NCBI GenBank assembly: GCA_963828465.1 | Contig: CAWHEU010000029.1 | Span: 1 to 64,000 of the forward strand | DNA from: an uncultured Acidobacteriota bacterium | Lineage (GTDB): Bacteria > Actinomycetota > Acidimicrobiia > Spongiisociales > ZC4RG35 | Reading direction: 5' to 3' | DNA length: 64,000 bases | Shown: piece after piece, positions 37,395 through 56,551 of the stretch | How the letters are laid out: every line of letters starts with the position of its first letter | How positions within the stretch are numbered: the stretch's first letter is position 1 | Translations under genes and position numbers: made by a program | Notes under the pieces: model-generated | What the model saw: the letters and a program-made list of their open reading frames with translations, nothing else | Told to the model about the DNA's origin: nothing | The model's database searches: none

Positions 37395-38348
37395 ATGGAG
37401 ATCCATCCCGACGTCCTCGCCGCCATAGGCAACACGCCCCTGATCAGGCTGTCGAGGATCCGCCCTCAGGGCAACCTCGTGGCCAAGGTCGAGCACATGA
37501 ACCCGGGAGGCTCGGTCAAGGAGCGAATCGCCGTGGCGATGATCGATGCGGCCGAGAAAGAAGGGCTCCTGCGGCCAGGCGGCACCATCATCGAGCCGAC
37601 CTCCGGCAATACAGGTGTAGGACTTGCGCTTGTCGGCGCCGTTCGCGGCTATCGGGTCATCTGCACGGTTCCAGACAAGGTCTCCAAGGAGAAACAGGAT
37701 CTCCTACGGGCCTATGGAGTCGAAGTCGTGGTGACTCCTACCGATCTCCTCCCCGAGCACCCGGATTCCTACTACGGGGTGGCGCGGAGACTGACCGAGG
37801 AAATCGAAGGCGCCTTTCACCCCGACCAATACTCGAACCCGGCCAATCCTCAGGCCCACTACGACACGACCGGCCCGGAGATATGGCAGCAGACCGAGGG
37901 AGAAGTCGACGTGCTCGTCGTCGGAGTGGGTACAGGAGGCACCATCAGTGGCGCCGGCCGCTACCTCAAGGAGCAGAAGCCGACGGTCCAAGTGGTCGGC
38001 GTCGATCCTGAAGGCTCCATTTTCACCGCGGACAACGAGAACGAGGTCCACCAGTACTCGGTGGAAGGTGTCGGTGAGGACTTCTACCCCAAGACCGTGG
38101 ACCTGGATCTGATCGACCGCTGGATCAAGGTGAATGATGCCGACTCGTTCACCATGACGAAGAGGTTGGCACGGGAGGAGGGCATCTTGGTCGGTGGGTC
38201 CTGCGGCATGGCGGCGCACGGAGCCCAGCAGGTGGCCGAGGAGGACCCGGAGGCGTTGGTGGTGGTGATCCTGCCCGATTCGGGGCGGGGCTATCTCTCC
38301 AAGATCTTCAACGAAGATTGGATGGCGGAGCGGGGCTTCGACACCTGA
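37395..38348 (+). CDS. Cystathionine beta-synthase / cysteine synthase (no CBS tail)
   Basis: IGNTPL, NPGGSVKER, EPTSGNTG, GVGTGGT, LPDSGRGYLSK. Confidence 0.9.
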   Translation: MEIHPDVLAAIGNTPLIRLSRIRPQGNLVAKVEHMNPGGSVKERIAVAMIDAAEKEGLLRPGGTIIEPTSGNTGVGLALVGAVRGYRVICTVPDKVSKEKQDLLRAYGVEVVVTPTDLLPEHPDSYYGVARRLTEEIEGAFHPDQYSNPANPQAHYDTTGPEIWQQTEGEVDVLVVGVGTGGTISGAGRYLKEQKPTVQVVGVDPEGSIFTADNENEVHQYSVEGVGEDFYPKTVDLDLIDRWIKVNDADSFTMTKRLAREEGILVGGSCGMAAHGAQQVAEEDPEALVVVILPDSGRGYLSKIFNEDWMAERGFDT

Positions 38349-38349
38349 A

Positions 38350-38591
38350 ACAGAAGGGCCCTCGACGGATCGAGGGCCCTTCGTTTGAAGATCAGCTATG
38401 GCATTGCTTCGGCGAGTTACGCCGCCACGAATGGACGAGGTTCGCGGTATCCAGAGCCGGGTGGTCCGAGTTTGGAGTCGCCACCTGTCCCGAGGGACGA
38501 GCGGCGGCTGCGGTCAGCGCCGCTCAGCGCTCGACCACCTCCAGAGTCCAAAGACTTTCATACAACCTAGGACCACCTCCTTTCTCTGGTG
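38350..38591 (-). ncRNA. Candidate structured small RNA with extended Shine-Dalgarno and 13-codon sORF (TTG 38565 to TGA 38524: MYESLWTLEVVER)
   Basis: TGTGGCAGACT -10-like element, AGAAAGGAGGTGGTCC, several hairpins, terminator. Confidence 0.55.
38353..38382. terminator. Bidirectional terminator
   Basis: gaagggccctcga-cgga-tcgagggcccttc with T-runs on both strands. Confidence 0.85.
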
Positions 38592-38653
38592 GAGACAGTC
38601 TGCCACAACTCGGGCGAATTGGTGAGGGGTTTTCAGACGAGGCCAGGGCCCGA

Positions 38654-40978
38654 TCACGTAGGCCGCCGGAAGACATCCGGGGGGATCGCGTCCTGATCCC
38701 GACGCCTCGTCCCCAGACCGGCCAGATACTGGTTGGGGAACGTGTGGCCGTCATACCCGAGGTCGATGGCCGCGTTGAGAGTCCAGTAGGGGTCGACGAT
38801 GTGGGGACGCGCCAACAGGCAAAGATCCGCCCGCCCGGCGACCAGGATGTTGTGAACGTCGTCGATGCTGGAGACGGCTCCCACCGTCATGGTGGCGATC
38901 CCAACCTCGTTGCGAATCCGATCCGAATAAGGGGTCTGATAGAGCCGCCCGTACTCGGGGTCGGCATCGACCGTGGTCTGACCGGTTGACACGTCGATCA
39001 GGTCACAGCCCCGCTCTTTCAGCTTCGCCGCGAACGCCACCGCATCGTCACCATCGAACCCTCCGTCGACCCAATCTGTCGCCGAGATCCGCACCGAGAT
39101 CGGCTTCTCGTCGGGCCATACCTCGCGCACCGCTTCGAATACCTCGAGTGGATATCGCATCCTGTTCTCGGCCGAGCCCCCGTATTGGTCACTCCTCTGA
39201 TTGGCCAGAGGGGTGAGGAAGCTGGACAGCAGATATCCATGGGCGTAGTGGAGCTCGAGGAGATCGAACCCGGCGTCGCTCCCGAACCGGGCCGAGGCGA
39301 CATGCTGGTCCCGGACGCGGTCCATATCGGCCCGGGTCATCTCCCGGGGCACCTGGCTATCGGGCCGATAGCGGATCGGGGAAGGTGCCATGATCTCCCA
39401 ATTGCCCTCGTCCAGGGGCTCGCTGTCCCCTTCCCACATCAACTTGGTCGATCCCTTGCGCCCCGAGTGCCCGATCTGGAGACCGATGCGGGCTTCGGTG
39501 TGGATGTGGACGAAGTCGACGATCCGCGTGAAGGCATCCGTCTGCTCCCGGTTCCAAAGACCGGTGCACCGAGGGCTGATCCTGCCCTCGGGAGACACAC
39601 AGGTCATCTCGGTCATCACCAAACCAGCACCACCTACAGCCCGGCTGCCCAGATGGACCAGGTGCCATTCATTGGGCACCCCCTCGATGGCGCTGTACTG
39701 GTCCATCGGCGACACCACGATGCGGTTGGCCAACTCGAGACCGCGCACCCGGAATGGATGGAACATGGGAGGCACGTCGGGCCCGACAGATGTGGGGCAT
39801 GAGTGCTCTGAGGCTGCGTACCAGGCGTCGACCCGAGCCATGTACCCGGGGTCACGGACCCGCAGATTGTCGTAGGTGATCCGCTGGCTTCGGGTCAGCA
39901 TGCTGAACACGAACTGCTCAGGGTCGAGGTTCCGGTAGCGATCGGCGCCCTCGAACCAGTTCCGGCTCGCCTTCGCGGCCCGTTGCAGACTCTCGACCTC
40001 GGGCCGGCGCATCTGCTCGTAGCGGTCGAAGGCTTGTCCAATGGGTGGCCGGCGAGGAGCAGCCCGGCGAGAGCGATGGCGTCCTCCATGGCCAGCTTGG
40101 TGCCTGAGCCCACCGAGAAATGCGCAGTGTGGATGGCGTCGCCGATGCAGCACGACATTGCCGTGGTGCCAGCGCTCACAACTGATCGTGGGGAACTGGA
40201 GCCAGCGGGAGTTGTTGCCGAGAAGACCGAGCCCGTCGAGATGAGGGGCGAAGATTTCCTCACTTCGCTGGAGGGCGTAGTCGTCGCTCACACCCGGCGG
40301 GAACACTTCATCCTCGGTCTTGTCGAAGCCGAGCGCCGACCAGGTCTCTGGACGCATCTCCACGATGAAGGTGCTGCCGTCGTCGCTGTACGGGTAGATG
40401 TGGGCCCACACCATCCCCGAGGGCGTGTCTTCGAAGATGAAGTTGAATTCGTCGAAAACCTTGGGGGTGCCGAACCAGATGTACTTGTTGCGAGCGGGCT
40501 CCAGCGACGGCCTCAGGTGAGACTCCAGCTCCCGCCGCACGATGCTGTTGGCACCGTCGGCCCCAACGATCACCCCGACCGATTCGAAGTCCGACAGGCT
40601 CTTGACTTCGGTCGAGAAGTGAAGTTCGACGTCGAGCCGGCGGGCACGTTCGGTCAACGTCTCGAGGAGGGCGCGACGGCTTATTGCTGCAAACCCGTGA
40701 CCGCCAGAGATGACGGCGGCACCTTCGGGATGGTGGGTCTTTATCTCCCCCCAGTGCCGGAACTCCTGTGTCATCGCCCGATGCGAGATCGGGTCTGCCA
40801 TCTCGAAGTTGTCCAGGGTCTCGTCACTGAAAACGACCCCGAATCCGTACGCGTCCTGGGACGTATTTCGCTCATAGACCGAGACATCGAGCTCCGAGCG
40901 CGCCTGTTTGAGGAGGATCGACAAATAGAGACCTGCCGGTCCCCCACCGACGATGGCGACGCCCTTTTCGATGCTCAT
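38654..40978 (-). CDS. Bifunctional salicylyl-CoA 5-hydroxylase / anthraniloyl-CoA monooxygenase-reductase; compensating frameshifts ~40150 and ~40045
   Basis: [34 protein letters not shown] (shifted frame), OYE domain [16 protein letters not shown]. Confidence 0.92.
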
Positions 40979-41867: not shown

Positions 41868-41963
41868 GGAGGCGTCCGGACGCCTGGTGGGTCCCCCGGT
41901 CTTCAAAACCGGCGAGGGGTCTGAACGGCCCCTGGCGGGTTCGATTCCCGTCCGCCTCCGCCA
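41868..41963 (+). tRNA. selC: tRNA-Sec(TCA)
   Basis: 96 nt, anticodon arm ccggtCT-TCA-AAaccgg, long variable arm, GGGTTCGATTCCC, CCA end. Confidence 0.95.
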
Positions 41964-53905: not shown

Positions 53906-53992
53906 AGGCCCTCAGGGTAAAGGCCTCGATGCCTTGCACAATGTCAGGCCGTTACCATCGGCCGCGTCCACAGTTCATGGGGAGGCTTCCAA

Positions 53993-56551
53993 TTGTCTGA
54001 GTACCCGTTCCGGTTGCCCCGGACCGCGATCCCTGTCCACTACGACCTCCGCCTCGAGCCGGATCTGGGCACCTTCACCTTCGACGGAGAGGTCTCTATT
54101 CGGATCGGCATCACGGAGACCCTCAATGAGATAGTCCTCAATGTCGCCGAGATCGACATCAAGACCACGACGCTCAGTGGAGAGGACGGAGAGACCGCGG
54201 TCACCGGGGTCACTTACGACAACGAGTACTCCAGGGCCACGTTGACGCTGGAGCACCCCGTGGCCCCCGGCACATACACCCTCGGCATCACCTACACAGG
54301 GATCATCAACGACCAGCTCCGTGGGCTCTATCGGTCGATCTACCGCGACGAGGACGGGACCGAGCACGTCATCGCCACTTCGCAGTGCCAGGCCACCGAC
54401 GCCCGCCGCGTTCTCCCATGCTGGGACGAGCCGGACTTGAAGGCAACGTTCAAGACCACGATGGTCGTCGCGGAGGGGATGGAGGCCTTCTCGAATGGCG
54501 CCGAGATCTCCAGGACCACTCTCGACGACGGCAAGGTCCGCTTCGAGTTCACCGAGACGATGAAGATGTCCACCTACTTGCTGGCCTTCATCGTGGGTCC
54601 CTTCGAGGCGACCGACCCTGTTTCGAGCAAGGACACGGCGATACGGATCATCGTTCCCAAAGGAAACCTCCACCTCACCGCTCTCGCCCTGGAGAACGCC
54701 GTCTTCTGTTTCGAGTACCTCTCCGATTACTACGGGATCCCATACCCGGAGCAGAAGCTGGACCACATCGCCATCCCCGACTTCGCCGCCGGTGCCATGG
54801 AGAACGTCGGGCTGATCACGTATCGGGACGCCTATCTCATGCTCGACGAGGCGAAGGCGAGCCAGAGTGAGCTTCAGGCCTGCCTCGACGTGATCGGGCA
54901 CGAGATCGCCCATCAGTGGTTCGGCAACCTGGTCACCATGCGGTGGTGGGAGGGCGCCTGGCTCAACGAGGCGTTCGCCAGCTTCATGGAGCTGAAGGCC
55001 ACGGATTCCAGGAAGCCGGACTGGAAGCGGTGGCTGGCCTTTGCCAACCTCGAGGTGCCATGGGCGATGGGCACCGACCAGCTGGCGACGACCCGGCCCA
55101 TCGAGTTCGAGGTCAACTCGCCGGCCGAAGTCGACGAGATGTTCGACTCCATCACCTATGGCAAGGGCTCGGCCGTCTTGAGGATGATCGAGCAATTCAT
55201 CGGCGAAGAGGAGTTCCGCACCGGGGTTGGCAACTATCTGCGCAAGCACGAGTACGCCAACACGGTCACAAGCGACCTCTGGGAAGGGCTGGACGGCGCA
55301 GCCGACTGGCCGGTCGGCGAGATCATGGACACCTGGGTCAACCAGAAGGGTTTCCCTCAGATCGATGTCAGGGTCGTGCCGGAGGGAATCCATCTCAGCC
55401 AGCGCCGCTTCCTGGCCATACCGGACGAGACCGACATGACGATCTGGGACGTCCCCATCCAACTGCGCGGTGTCGTAGACGGTGAGCCCTTCGAGACGAA
55501 GGTCCTCCTCACCGACGACGAGACGGTGGTCCCGATCGAGGGCCCGTTCGACTTCGTGGTCGCCAACGCCGGTGGTCATGGGTTCTACCGGACCCGTTAC
55601 TCCGACGAGCTGTTCACCGGACTCCTTGGCCACCTCGACACTCTCGGCGATATCGAACGACACAGCCTCGTCTCGGATACGTGGGCAATGGTTCGTTCGG
55701 CTCAAGTGCCGGCGTCCGCCTTCCTCGACCTGGTCGGCAAGTTTGGCCAGGAGACCGAGCACGCCGTGTGGTCGGTGATCATCGGCGGGCTCCGGTCACT
55801 GGAGCATCACGCTCTGGAAGAGCAGACCCGTCCCGCGTTCGAGACGTTCGTCCGCGATCTGGTCGGACCCGTCCTCGACCGTCTCGGTTGGGAGGGGTCA
55901 GGCGACGAGAGCGACCTCACCCGGAAGCTGCGGGGCGACCTGATCGCAGCCCTGGGCATCCTGGGTGACGAGCCCTCCACCGTCGAAAAGGCGCGGGAGC
56001 TCGCCGGCGACGTCCTCGAGGGCGCCCAATTCGATCCCGAAGTGTGCACCGCCGCCCTGTCGGTCTACTCGCACCACGGAGGGGCCGAGGAATACGAGGC
56101 GCTATGGGCCGCCTATCACAAGACCAACGCCCCGGCCGAGAAGGTCCGTTATCTCCGCTCCGTTGCCGGGGTCGAGGTGGAGGAACTGGCGCTGTCGACC
56201 ATGGAGAAGATCGTCAGCGGCGACATCAGGACCCAGGACGGGTTCTGGGTCTTCGCCCGCCTCCTGTCGGGCGAAGCCGGGCCCACCGTGTGGCAAGACG
56301 CCCGGAGCCGGTGGGACGAGGTGCTGGGGGTGATGCCAGGCATGACCAGGAGACGGGTGGTGGAGGGTCTACCCGCCCTCTCCCAGCCAGAGGTCGCAGC
56401 CGACGTGAAAAGCTTCTTCGCCGAGCACCCCATCCCCGAGGCTGCCCGCTTCCTCACCCAGAATCTCGAGCTCCTCGACACCAATGTCCTACTCCGCGAA
56501 CGGGAGACTCCAGTGGTCACCGAGTACTTCCGGGATACACCAACTTCCTGA
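53993..56551 (+). CDS. M1 family aminopeptidase (PSA/ERAP1-type)
   Basis: GAMEN, HEIAH...WLNEAFA, ITYGKG, ERAP1_C-like tail. Confidence 0.94.
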   Translation: MSEYPFRLPRTAIPVHYDLRLEPDLGTFTFDGEVSIRIGITETLNEIVLNVAEIDIKTTTLSGEDGETAVTGVTYDNEYSRATLTLEHPVAPGTYTLGITYTGIINDQLRGLYRSIYRDEDGTEHVIATSQCQATDARRVLPCWDEPDLKATFKTTMVVAEGMEAFSNGAEISRTTLDDGKVRFEFTETMKMSTYLLAFIVGPFEATDPVSSKDTAIRIIVPKGNLHLTALALENAVFCFEYLSDYYGIPYPEQKLDHIAIPDFAAGAMENVGLITYRDAYLMLDEAKASQSELQACLDVIGHEIAHQWFGNLVTMRWWEGAWLNEAFASFMELKATDSRKPDWKRWLAFANLEVPWAMGTDQLATTRPIEFEVNSPAEVDEMFDSITYGKGSAVLRMIEQFIGEEEFRTGVGNYLRKHEYANTVTSDLWEGLDGAADWPVGEIMDTWVNQKGFPQIDVRVVPEGIHLSQRRFLAIPDETDMTIWDVPIQLRGVVDGEPFETKVLLTDDETVVPIEGPFDFVVANAGGHGFYRTRYSDELFTGLLGHLDTLGDIERHSLVSDTWAMVRSAQVPASAFLDLVGKFGQETEHAVWSVIIGGLRSLEHHALEEQTRPAFETFVRDLVGPVLDRLGWEGSGDESDLTRKLRGDLIAALGILGDEPSTVEKARELAGDVLEGAQFDPEVCTAALSVYSHHGGAEEYEALWAAYHKTNAPAEKVRYLRSVAGVEVEELALSTMEKIVSGDIRTQDGFWVFARLLSGEAGPTVWQDARSRWDEVLGVMPGMTRRRVVEGLPALSQPEVAADVKSFFAEHPIPEAARFLTQNLELLDTNVLLRERETPVVTEYFRDTPTS

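Follow-up and report, generated by a model that had tools for sequence, protein, structure and literature searches.

A probable divergent member of the Ms_IGR-5 small RNA family in Acidimicrobiia with an extended Shine-Dalgarno sequence, a frame-conserved mini open reading frame and a pseudoknot

Ms_IGR-5 (RF02471), reportedly first described from Mycobacterium smegmatis by Li et al. in 2013 (RNA 19:74), is a family of small RNAs (sRNAs) that has been catalogued since that year and spans the Actinomycetota, including Mycobacterium, Streptomyces and Acidimicrobiia. STAB-SD 5′ stabilisers, such as the leader of Bacillus thuringiensis cry3A, carry a long Shine-Dalgarno (SD)-like sequence near the transcript 5′ end that binds the 30S subunit. 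Here, we analysed a minus-strand locus in a 64,000-nt stretch of DNA (hereafter the window; contig CAWHEU010000029.1, positions 1 to 64,000, to which all coordinates refer). This locus encodes, in single copy and as a stand-alone gene, a ~240-nt sRNA that, judging from sequence comparison, is very probably a divergent, Acidimicrobiia-type homologue of Ms_IGR-5 missed by the Rfam threshold. The window adds a deep-branching clade below the Rfam cut-off, and the variation within this clade exposes a pseudoknot and a long-range helix. The RNA resembles the STAB-SD elements in having a long SD-like sequence close to its 5′ end; those elements have no start codon at initiation distance and no open reading frame (ORF), whereas the window RNA keeps a start, a frame and a stop.

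Published data on Ms_IGR-5 come from several actinomycetes. According to passages of the respective papers, RNA-seq confirmed expression of the homologue in S. lividans (PMC8079986), Ms_IGR-5 was reported in S. avermitilis (PMC8780764) and the sRNA IGR-5 in M. smegmatis (PMC10454040), and significant ribosomal reads fell on the MS_IGR-5 homologues of M. abscessus and M. smegmatis (PMC4974804); the RF02471 family is cited in passages of PMC8079986, PMC8780764 and PMC4974804. The M. abscessus homologue, ncMab10731 (Ms_IGR-5), reached 70.3 reads per kilobase per million (RPKM) by RNA-seq and 3736.6 RPKM by ribosome profiling (Ribo-seq; PMC4974804, Additional file 2, sheet 'ncRNAs'). These are the highest footprint value and the highest ratio (~53) among the 36 noncoding RNA (ncRNA) rows of that file, the next ratios being ~12.5 for F6 and 3581/79735 for tmRNA, and Ms_IGR-5 is the most ribosome-covered ncRNA in this one Ribo-seq table. 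The transcription start site (TSS) of ncMab10731, listed at 736030 in the same file, lies 2 nt ahead of the start of the Rfam model. Ribosome engagement, which the initial annotation of the window locus had proposed, is consistent with this published signal on a homologue. Our literature search, with the original 2013 report outside its scope, returned no paper that assigns a function to Ms_IGR-5 or describes a 16-nt anti-SD complement, a frame-conserved mini-ORF or a pseudoknot in it; the RNA is likewise unmentioned in the review PMC4109619 and the eLife paper PMC9094748. The small ORF in the 5′ untranslated region of Rv0813c (PMC11133741) was considered as the same RNA and rejected as a different element.

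Other described systems share parts of this design. CC2171 sRNA (RF01867) occurs in Caulobacter and other Alphaproteobacteria, and a passage of bioRxiv 10.1101/2022.01.24.477521 reports its expression in Methylorubrum by Northern blotting. Its model consensus starts with GAAAGGAGGUGAUCC, followed by a start codon, and has a terminator at the end. CC2171 is alphaproteobacterial and thus belongs to another phylum than the actinobacterial host of the window RNA, of which it is probably an analogue, with homology not implied. Dual-function sRNAs and liberated attenuators such as rnTrpL/peTrpL are, in the portions of PMC6614838 and of the reviews PMC12612679 and PMC12310071 available to us, likewise small RNAs with a translated short ORF; in those systems a defined role falls to the peptide or to a base-pairing seed, whereas the peptide of the window RNA is unconserved and no seed was identified.

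Family membership, conservation and transcripts

The initial annotation had presented the RNA as new unless it matched a family already in Rfam. At gathering score, the Rfam scan of the window yielded no match at the locus, only two tRNAs and tRNA-Sec. In E-value mode, two families whose model consensuses both start GAAAGGAGGUG(A/G)UCC appeared there: CC2171, the best weak match (24.3 bits, E 0.0033), which stays under its 75-bit cut-off and is carried by the SD 16-mer and the terminator, and Ms_IGR-5 (18.0 bits, E 0.057 for the region). The Ms_IGR-5 match (38404-38590, minus) is the only one of RF02471 in the window's genome (18 bits, E 0.086 for the whole genome) and spans model positions 1-184, that is, its full length. 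At orthologous loci in the same family and order, the model scored 23.2, 27.3 and 36.8 bits, with E-values down to 9.9e-7.

Furthermore, RF02471 was run on 151 sampled genomes of the phylum, four of them unpublished: 49 matched at E <= 0.01 and 22 exceeded the cut-off, with scores running continuously from about 186 down to 23 bits. The window's genome belongs to the same phylum as the genomes scoring highest. In named actinomycete genomes with the same 5′ motif, five of five loci were above the cut-off (179.4, 95.2, 85.2, 85.0 and 56.2 bits). Conversely, a covariance model built from 33 sequences of the window's order only (R1) matches 38389-38592 in the window and found exactly one match per genome in 64 of the 151 sampled phylum genomes, a sample that for R1 includes six unpublished genomes. 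It coincided, at the same coordinates, with 15 of the 22 above-cut-off RF02471 loci, one of these 15 lying in the unpublished genome G083. Homology to RF02471 is supported because a model trained on the order alone finds RF02471 loci in whole genomes. The Rfam comparison thus came out in two parts, with nothing at gathering score and with a weak RF02471 match that R1 reciprocates; the RNA is new as a deep-branching member, while its kind is already catalogued.

A pattern joining the two conserved boxes of the RNA hit at least 120 loci in species-representative genomes. All 80 titled records among the loci listed are actinobacterial, as we presume from their names; among the matches listed are Streptomyces, Micromonospora, Mycobacterium, Nocardioides, Acidimicrobiia, Solirubrobacteraceae and Microthrix, and the nearest titled ones are Acidimicrobiia metagenome-assembled genomes. 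Neither model matched in the searched genomes of five families, f26 (0/10), f27 (0/7), f28 (0/9), f38 (0/5) and f39 (0/6). In the three of these families with members listed, genome size is about 3 Mb for f26 and small, 1.3-1.9 Mb, for f27 and f28; in such families the RNA may have been lost, or may have diverged past detection.

Ms_IGR-5 and the window RNA are both single-copy, stand-alone sRNAs with their own promoter, a 5′ end reading GRRAGGAGGUGGUCC and a 12-15-codon frame ending ..T-x-E-V-A-x-x-stop. They also share GGAC-N4-GAGGUGG, the long-range helix that reaches onto ..CACC and, distally, a hairpin whose loop contains GUCC. They differ in length (184 model positions vs ~240 nt), the window RNA adding the hairpins P3 and P4 inside helix P2; in the anti-SD-like strand, which is CUCGGACCACC in the window RNA and GCAGUCACC in Ms_IGR-5; and in the -10 box (TGTGGCAGACT vs TANNNT). 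In addition, the fifth pair of the pseudoknot covaries only in the window RNA's clade, unlike in other Ms_IGR-5 members.

Homologues of the stretch, whose absence would by the initial annotation have counted against the RNA, were recovered in 56 of 60 relatives (blastn, E <= 2e-4) and, phylum-wide, as 167 distinct sequences. The 60 relatives include five unpublished genomes (G018, G028, G050, G039 and G027), and the four without a match have assemblies that are 84, 76, 97 and 75% complete. The conserved core corresponds to 38590-38460; in the alignment of relatives, ACCAGAGAAAGGAGGTGGTCC is followed by a variable stretch of ~20 nt and then by GGACTCTGGAGGTGG(C/T)CGAGCGCT and the stop codon. 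One genome, G053 (78% complete), has two copies on different contigs (L039 on G053:C5 and L042 on G053:C12); the element is single-copy in all other genomes checked. The fold of the window RNA has a z-score of -5.29.

Contigs from metatranscriptomes were obtained in four of four runs from four studies, all inside 38374-38591, and one of them, 208 nt long, is identical to the window. The stretches 38200-38373 and 38592-38800 have no contig cover, which is not to be read as absence. Adapter-like loose ends of contig X3 at 38399 and 38580 were considered as RNA ends and rejected, as they define no ends.

The extended Shine-Dalgarno sequence and the mini-ORF

The features of the RNA, from the whole transcript and its 5′ side to its 3′ side, are as follows.

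~38353-38592, minus: whole small RNA, ~240 nt (conservation, fold z-score, RNA-library contigs, RF02471 and R1 matches)
38597-38607, minus: -10-like box TGTGGCAGACT (conserved; candidate promoter element)
38541-38589, minus: helix P1a, CCAGA (38589-38585) with UCUGG (38545-38541) (covariation)
38570-38585, minus: extended SD (SD1), AGAAAGGAGGUGGUCC, complementary over 16 nt to the 3′ tail of the 16S rRNA (one G-U pair)
38565-38524, minus: mini-ORF with TTG start, 13 sense codons (MYESLWTLEVVER) and TGA stop (conserved frame)
38546-38550, minus: pseudoknot 5′ strand UGGAC, in mini-ORF codons 6-7, with partner GUCCA at 38436-38432 (RNAalifold)
38526-38542, minus: second SD-like box GGAGGUGGUC (38542-38533) and P2 5′ strand GGUGG-UCGAG-CGCU (38539-38526) (covariation)
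38487-38525, minus: hairpins P3 (38525-38518 with 38506-38499) and P4 (38498-38495 with 38490-38487), enclosed by P2
38483-38460, minus: P2 3′ strand, comprising (U)GGCG 38483-38479, internal loop ACUCCAAA, CUCGG 38470-38466, bulged A 38465 and anti-SD-like CCACC 38464-38460 (alignment and fold)
38393-38459, minus: 3′ three-way junction, P7 (38459-38451 with 38401-38393) around P5 and P6 (38424-38420 with 38414-38410) (predicted fold)
38425-38447, minus: hairpin P5, CCGCGAA with UUCGUGG, its loop CCUCGUCCA contributing the pseudoknot 3′ strand (38432-38436) (per-sequence search)
38353-38382, minus: terminal hairpin with a 13-bp GC-rich stem, then UGUUUC (fold; likely terminator)

The plus-strand strings on which the initial annotation was built, GGACCACCTCCTTTCT at 38570-38585 and GACCACCTCC at 38533-38542, are both present. 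The minus-strand 16-mer AGAAAGGAGGTGGTCC can pair over all 16 nt with the genome's own 16S tail, with one G-U and 12 contiguous Watson-Crick pairs; the 16S rRNA gene lies on contig C18 and its 3′ end reads GGATCACCTCCTTTCT. Allowing at most one mismatch, the 3,069,762-bp assembly holds the 16-mer twice, once at the rrs 3′ end and once here. The other long perfect SD runs in the genome are two of 13 nt and three further ones of 12 nt.

The ORF analysis covered 176 loci with 167 distinct sequences, two of them from unpublished genomes, with the frame set by xGG-ACN. Counted on the assumption of an identical 16S tail in all 167, the contiguous pairing potential of SD1 (Watson-Crick plus G-U) is 16 nt in 151 sequences and 15 nt in 16, and the extended anti-SD complement is conserved throughout. 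The phylum-level search pattern fixed 12 nt within SD1 and, in the GGAC-GAGGUGG box, 11 nt; it constrained neither start nor stop codon, nor the spacing, nor the three bases that precede AGGAGG. In the 118 sequences found with this pattern, one of these three positions is G in 118/118 and the two others are A or G in 118/118 each, and the bases 5′ of AGGAGG are thereby always able to pair with ..CUUU in the tail. At position 12 of the 16-mer (window 38574), which faces the U of GGAUCACC, 156 of the 167 sequences have G and not the Watson-Crick A, and the conserved G-U in the putative SD/anti-SD duplex results from that G.

Downstream of SD1, the TTG-started ORF of 13 codons listed by the initial annotation proved to be the conserved frame, whereas its ATG-started alternative, in frame 1, is present in the window and not conserved. 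An in-frame ATG, GTG or TTG is found in 152 of the 167 sequences and a near-cognate start in 14 more (CTG 12, ATA 1, ATC 1), so that a start is kept in 166. Its spacing from GGAGG is 8-13 nt in 164 of these 166 and 5 nt in the other 2; the window's start codon stands 10 nt past GGAGG. Moreover, a stop lies exactly 23 nt past GGAC in 167/167 (TAG 100, TGA 47, TAA 20). TGG would be expected in ~28 of the 167 if the two letters were independent, as computed from column frequencies, and was observed in none. The mini-ORF is 12-15 codons long. In frames 1 and 2 of the same sequences, starts and stops are scattered, with no pattern like that of frame 0. The sole broken mini-ORF, in L043 (G042:C1, ~53921-54078), has two extra bases that bring in an in-frame TAG after three codons.

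The encoded residues behave differently. Codons 2-4 lack any fixed residue, with entropies of 1.70, 1.77 and 1.37 at codon positions 1, 2 and 3, the third positions being the least variable. Within the genus, eight sequences depart from the commonest ORF. In seven of them the sole difference is nonsynonymous and lies in codon 2, and synonymous differences were seen nowhere in the ORF among the genus sequences. Helix strands supply the codons of those C-terminal residues that are conserved (T-x-E-V-A/V). A test for purifying selection on the amino-acid sequence, which would leave third positions most variable, came out negative. These patterns indicate that the peptide is not the thing conserved; translation of the mini-ORF is nevertheless likely to be under selection, and what matters in this tiny frame seems to be that it is translated, not which peptide results.

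Helices, pseudoknot and RNA ends

The fold was tested on the 33 sequences of the order (alignment A1, drawn from published genomes) for the elements P1a, the pseudoknot, P2 and P6. In the tested structure, 95.4% of cells were paired, vs 26-41% when the partners were slid by 1-3 columns, and the covariation score was 0.200 vs 0.113 in shuffles, a value attained by 0 of 500 shuffles.

Helix P1a closes a loop that holds SD1, the start codon and the first codons. The CCAGA/TCTGG pairing behind it, already suggested by the initial annotation, covaries: its middle pair is AU in 25, GC in 6 and CG in 2 of the 33 sequences, and CACG/CGUG, CGCG/CGCG and CCGA/UCGG occur in other classes. A GTCC/GGAC stem next to SD1, proposed alongside it, did not hold up, with no covariation and with its extension pair in 5/33; GGAC instead pairs with the loop of the distal hairpin P5. 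Since the partner of GGAC is this loop and not the GUCC beside SD1, SD1 is single-stranded over its full length. The fifth pair of the pseudoknot is AU in 14, UA in 7, GC in 5, CG in 2, another combination in 1 and a gap in 4 of the 33 sequences, and a heuristic search found a hairpin with GUCC in its loop in 164 of the 176 family loci. P5 was judged by a per-sequence hairpin search; the MAFFT alignment has a one-column offset between clades there (62.6% of cells paired). The letters of its stem vary by clade, for example CUGCGAG/CUCGCAG and CCGCAUG/CAUGCGG.

The second SD-like box sits inside the 15-bp long-range helix P2. The segment 38526-38542 takes in the final five sense codons plus the first stop-codon base, and GAGGUGG ends 8 nt ahead of the stop, or 5 nt ahead of the last sense codon, in all 167 sequences. 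In the order, P2 joins GGUGG-YCGAG-CGCUR to YRGCG, an 8-nt loop and CUCGG-A-CCACC; it is paired in 99.7-100% of cells and has two covarying pairs (AU 23/GC 10 and GC 30/UA 2). In actinomycetes, GGUGGCUGC lies opposite GCAGUCACC. The local GGTGG/CCACC hairpin of the initial annotation gave way to this helix: the partner of CCACC is the GGUGG within the second SD-like box, and the nearby alternative reads GGUAG in 10/33 without compensation. Pairing of the internal-loop CUCC with SD1 was also considered and rejected; it is unsupported because the loop varies without compensating change.

Between the stop and the return strand of P2, two hairpins were predicted in 26 of 33 sequences and one in 4, while three were mis-segmented by the regular expression. 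The hairpins GAGCGGCG/CGCCGCTC and GTCCC/GGGAC noted initially recur. In L009 and L030, both of the same genus, insertions (14 and 13 nt) extend P4 and leave the rest of the fold untouched, which suggests that P4 is a tolerant, peripheral element. On the 3′ side, the three-way shape was predicted in 24 of 33 order members, and P6 shows changes on both sides in four of its five pairs. Overall, the initial annotation had the anatomy largely right and erred in the stem assignment and in the novelty.

At the 5′ side, the -10-like box is conserved order-wide as TGTGGCAGA(A/C)T at a fixed distance from the SD, ~5-7 nt ahead of ACCAGAGAAAGGAGGTGGTCC. The RNA 5′ end would accordingly lie near 38590-38592, ~5-7 nt past the box; actinomycete members have TTGNNN and TANNNT boxes at the equivalent place. 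Relatives also have a GC-rich hairpin at the position of the terminal hairpin, which is likely the terminator of the small RNA and might double as that of the convergent gene on the plus strand. The claim of a stand-alone RNA is borne out by a conserved -10-like box of its own, by the terminal hairpin and by the location of the region between convergent genes.

Candidate modes of action and gene neighbourhood

As the best overall reading, we favour, somewhat above even chance, a ribosome-engaging RNA whose structure is unfolded by translation of the mini-ORF; that translating to unfold is its working principle is a more tentative claim, to which we give slightly less than even chance. P1a, a few bases after the RNA start, would close a loop presenting the 15-16-nt complement of the 16S tail and the start codon, on which a 30S subunit could dock without melting anything. 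The 12-15-codon frame with its fixed end point would then be translated, with selection presumably keeping something other than the peptide. The ORF crosses one strand each of the pseudoknot (GGAC), P1a (3′) and P2 (5′), with structure starting ~16 nt past the start; as the frame runs through these strands, each ribosome passage would have to unfold the RNA core. At termination, the anti-SD of the ribosome could sit on the second SD-like box, and the RNA would refold once termination is over. Its occupancy, conformation or stability may thereby report on or use ribosomes; candidate downstream effects are a 3′ three-way junction acting in trans, ribosome buffering and ribosome-dependent stabilisation. 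Homology, conservation, the constraint on start, frame and stop, the helices and the pseudoknot were computed here, and expression and very high footprint density are published on homologues; docking along 16 nt, translation-driven unfolding and any role in the cell's physiology are inferences. If translation does unfold the structure, the family would be RNAs with the ribosome as their ligand.

A wider and unlikely extension is that Ms_IGR-5-type RNAs form a dedicated, phylum-wide ribosome gauge. They would capture 30S subunits through the whole free 16S tail, be unfolded by one round of mini-ORF translation and refold, so that the translated fraction or ribosome-dependent stability would read out free translational capacity. 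Feedback through the 3′ junction might then act on ribosome supply, on hibernation, or on 16S 3′ end protection or maturation, and mini-ORF RNAs with a super-SD, like CC2171, would be analogues in other phyla.

Several observations weigh against the favoured reading. At 18 bits, the locus stays below the 45-bit gathering cut-off of RF02471, and the relatives are non-independent samples. Because the phylum-level pattern fixed the letters of SD1 and of the box, counts on those letters are circular. Environmental RNA libraries can hold DNA, and contig X2 extends 25 nt upstream of the proposed 5′ end, so the contigs are supportive and no proof of the RNA ends. A consensus scan of 38300-38700 called no sigma-70 promoter and no U-tract terminator. 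As the scan does not call the box, the promoter is only inferred; the -10-like box claimed initially stands by its conservation across the order but not by sigma-70 consensus, and the strong terminator claimed at 38353-38382 has its 13-bp GC-rich stem but is not called by the U-tract scanner. The four core pairs of the pseudoknot are invariant, and outside the order the fifth is often unpaired, being CA in 24 loci. The experimental data come from homologues and not from the window's organism, and ribosome footprints can include non-translating 30S or 70S binding. Finally, the minimum free energy (MFE) structure of the single sequence is another conformer, in which SD1 is paired to GGACCACC (-120.5 kcal/mol, vs -108.0 kcal/mol for the comparative nested structure without the pseudoknot); it also pairs the 5′ CCAGAG with a downstream CUCUGG. 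As a feature of the family this conformer was rejected: the downstream CUCUGG is not retained outside the genus, the GGUGAUCC sequences L045 and L055 keep GGACCACC, and actinomycetes have GCAGUCACC. The conformer pairing SD1 with GGACCACC may exist in the window's genus.

Alternatively, the RNA could be the messenger of a micropeptide of 13 residues (consensus M-x-x-x-(x)-[RWG]-T-x-E-V-[AV]-x-[RSG]) that would be the functional product, the RNA structure only tuning its synthesis. The conserved start, frame and stop fit this idea, as does the C-terminal T-x-E-V shared from Acidimicrobiia to Mycobacterium and Streptomyces, and a very strong SD with a high footprint density suits a highly translated gene. 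We nevertheless consider it improbable: all conserved residues are coded by letters of helix strands (GGAC, the P1a 3′ strand and P2), codons 2-4 are unconserved with third positions less variable than first and second, the ORF differences within the genus are nonsynonymous codon 2 changes in 7 of 8 cases with synonymous changes not seen, and the idea offers no reason for the ~170 nt of structured, conserved RNA further downstream. Were translation incidental, the RNA might instead act as a ribosome sponge that captures 30S or 70S particles through a putative duplex of 16 nt, its pseudoknot sitting where the mRNA enters, so that ribosomes are withdrawn or stored. The 15-16-nt pairing potential in 167/167 sequences would serve such a trap, structure starts at ~+16 relative to the start codon, the point at which an mRNA on the 30S subunit goes into the channel (by coordinates and textbook footprint sizes), and the footprint-to-RNA ratio of the homologue tops the 36 listed ncRNAs. 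A pure trap, however, needs neither an open frame nor a fixed stop, both of which are kept, and the modest RNA abundance (70 RPKM in one data set) suits a titrator of ribosomes poorly; we give the sponge little credence.

The translated 5′ part could also be a mere shield. In this quite unlikely account, SD1 and the mini-ORF only protect the 5′ end from 5′-dependent RNases, as STAB-SD elements do, and the 3′ three-way junction is the effector of a base-pairing or protein-binding sRNA. SD1 lies ~6-10 nt from the proposed 5′ end, the junction is conserved, and the family was first recovered, judging by the title of the paper, in a pull-down with a foreign Hfq. STAB-SD elements, on the other hand, have no need of a start codon or of an ORF, a conserved single-stranded seed was not identified in the window RNA, whose internal loop ACUCCAAA varies (CAUC, CUUC, CACC, CUAA), and the pseudoknot ties the 3′ domain to the ORF, so that the two halves are not independent modules. 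We attach next to no probability to a role in cis, as leader or attenuator for a gene next to it. The combination of a leader peptide with alternative pairings and a terminator does resemble attenuators, but gene order contradicts the idea: the next downstream gene, which encodes a PALP-family enzyme on the plus strand and ends at 38348, is convergent to the small RNA, and the downstream gene at the M. colombiense locus is convergent as well. Furthermore, both neighbours are retained at 28 of 28 loci within the genus, and outside it the PALP neighbour at 6 of 28 and the FAD/OYE (old-yellow-enzyme) neighbour at 0 of 28. Because its neighbours are rarely retained beyond the genus, the RNA is a free-standing gene.

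The gene on the other side, a FAD-binding/Oxidored_FMN fusion on the minus strand (38654-40978), ends at 38654. Its product of 774 residues is FAD-binding monooxygenase-like at the N-terminus and of the Oxidored_FMN (old-yellow-enzyme) type at the C-terminus. Elsewhere in the window, a tRNA-Sec gene lies at 41868-41959 on the plus strand (72.3 bits vs RF01852), and its presence indicates that the organism uses selenocysteine. The two 13-nt perfect complements of the 16S tail in the genome (G000) are identical copies, at C16:7013-7025 (plus) and C26:3288-3300 (minus), and each precedes a GTG-started ORF (VKRSYARLTEPLVRDNG...NNIDSCNRT) that stops after 78 codons. We take this ORF to resemble the N-terminus of a formate-dehydrogenase-type molybdoenzyme; its stop may be a UGA read as selenocysteine, consistent with the tRNA-Sec gene of the window.

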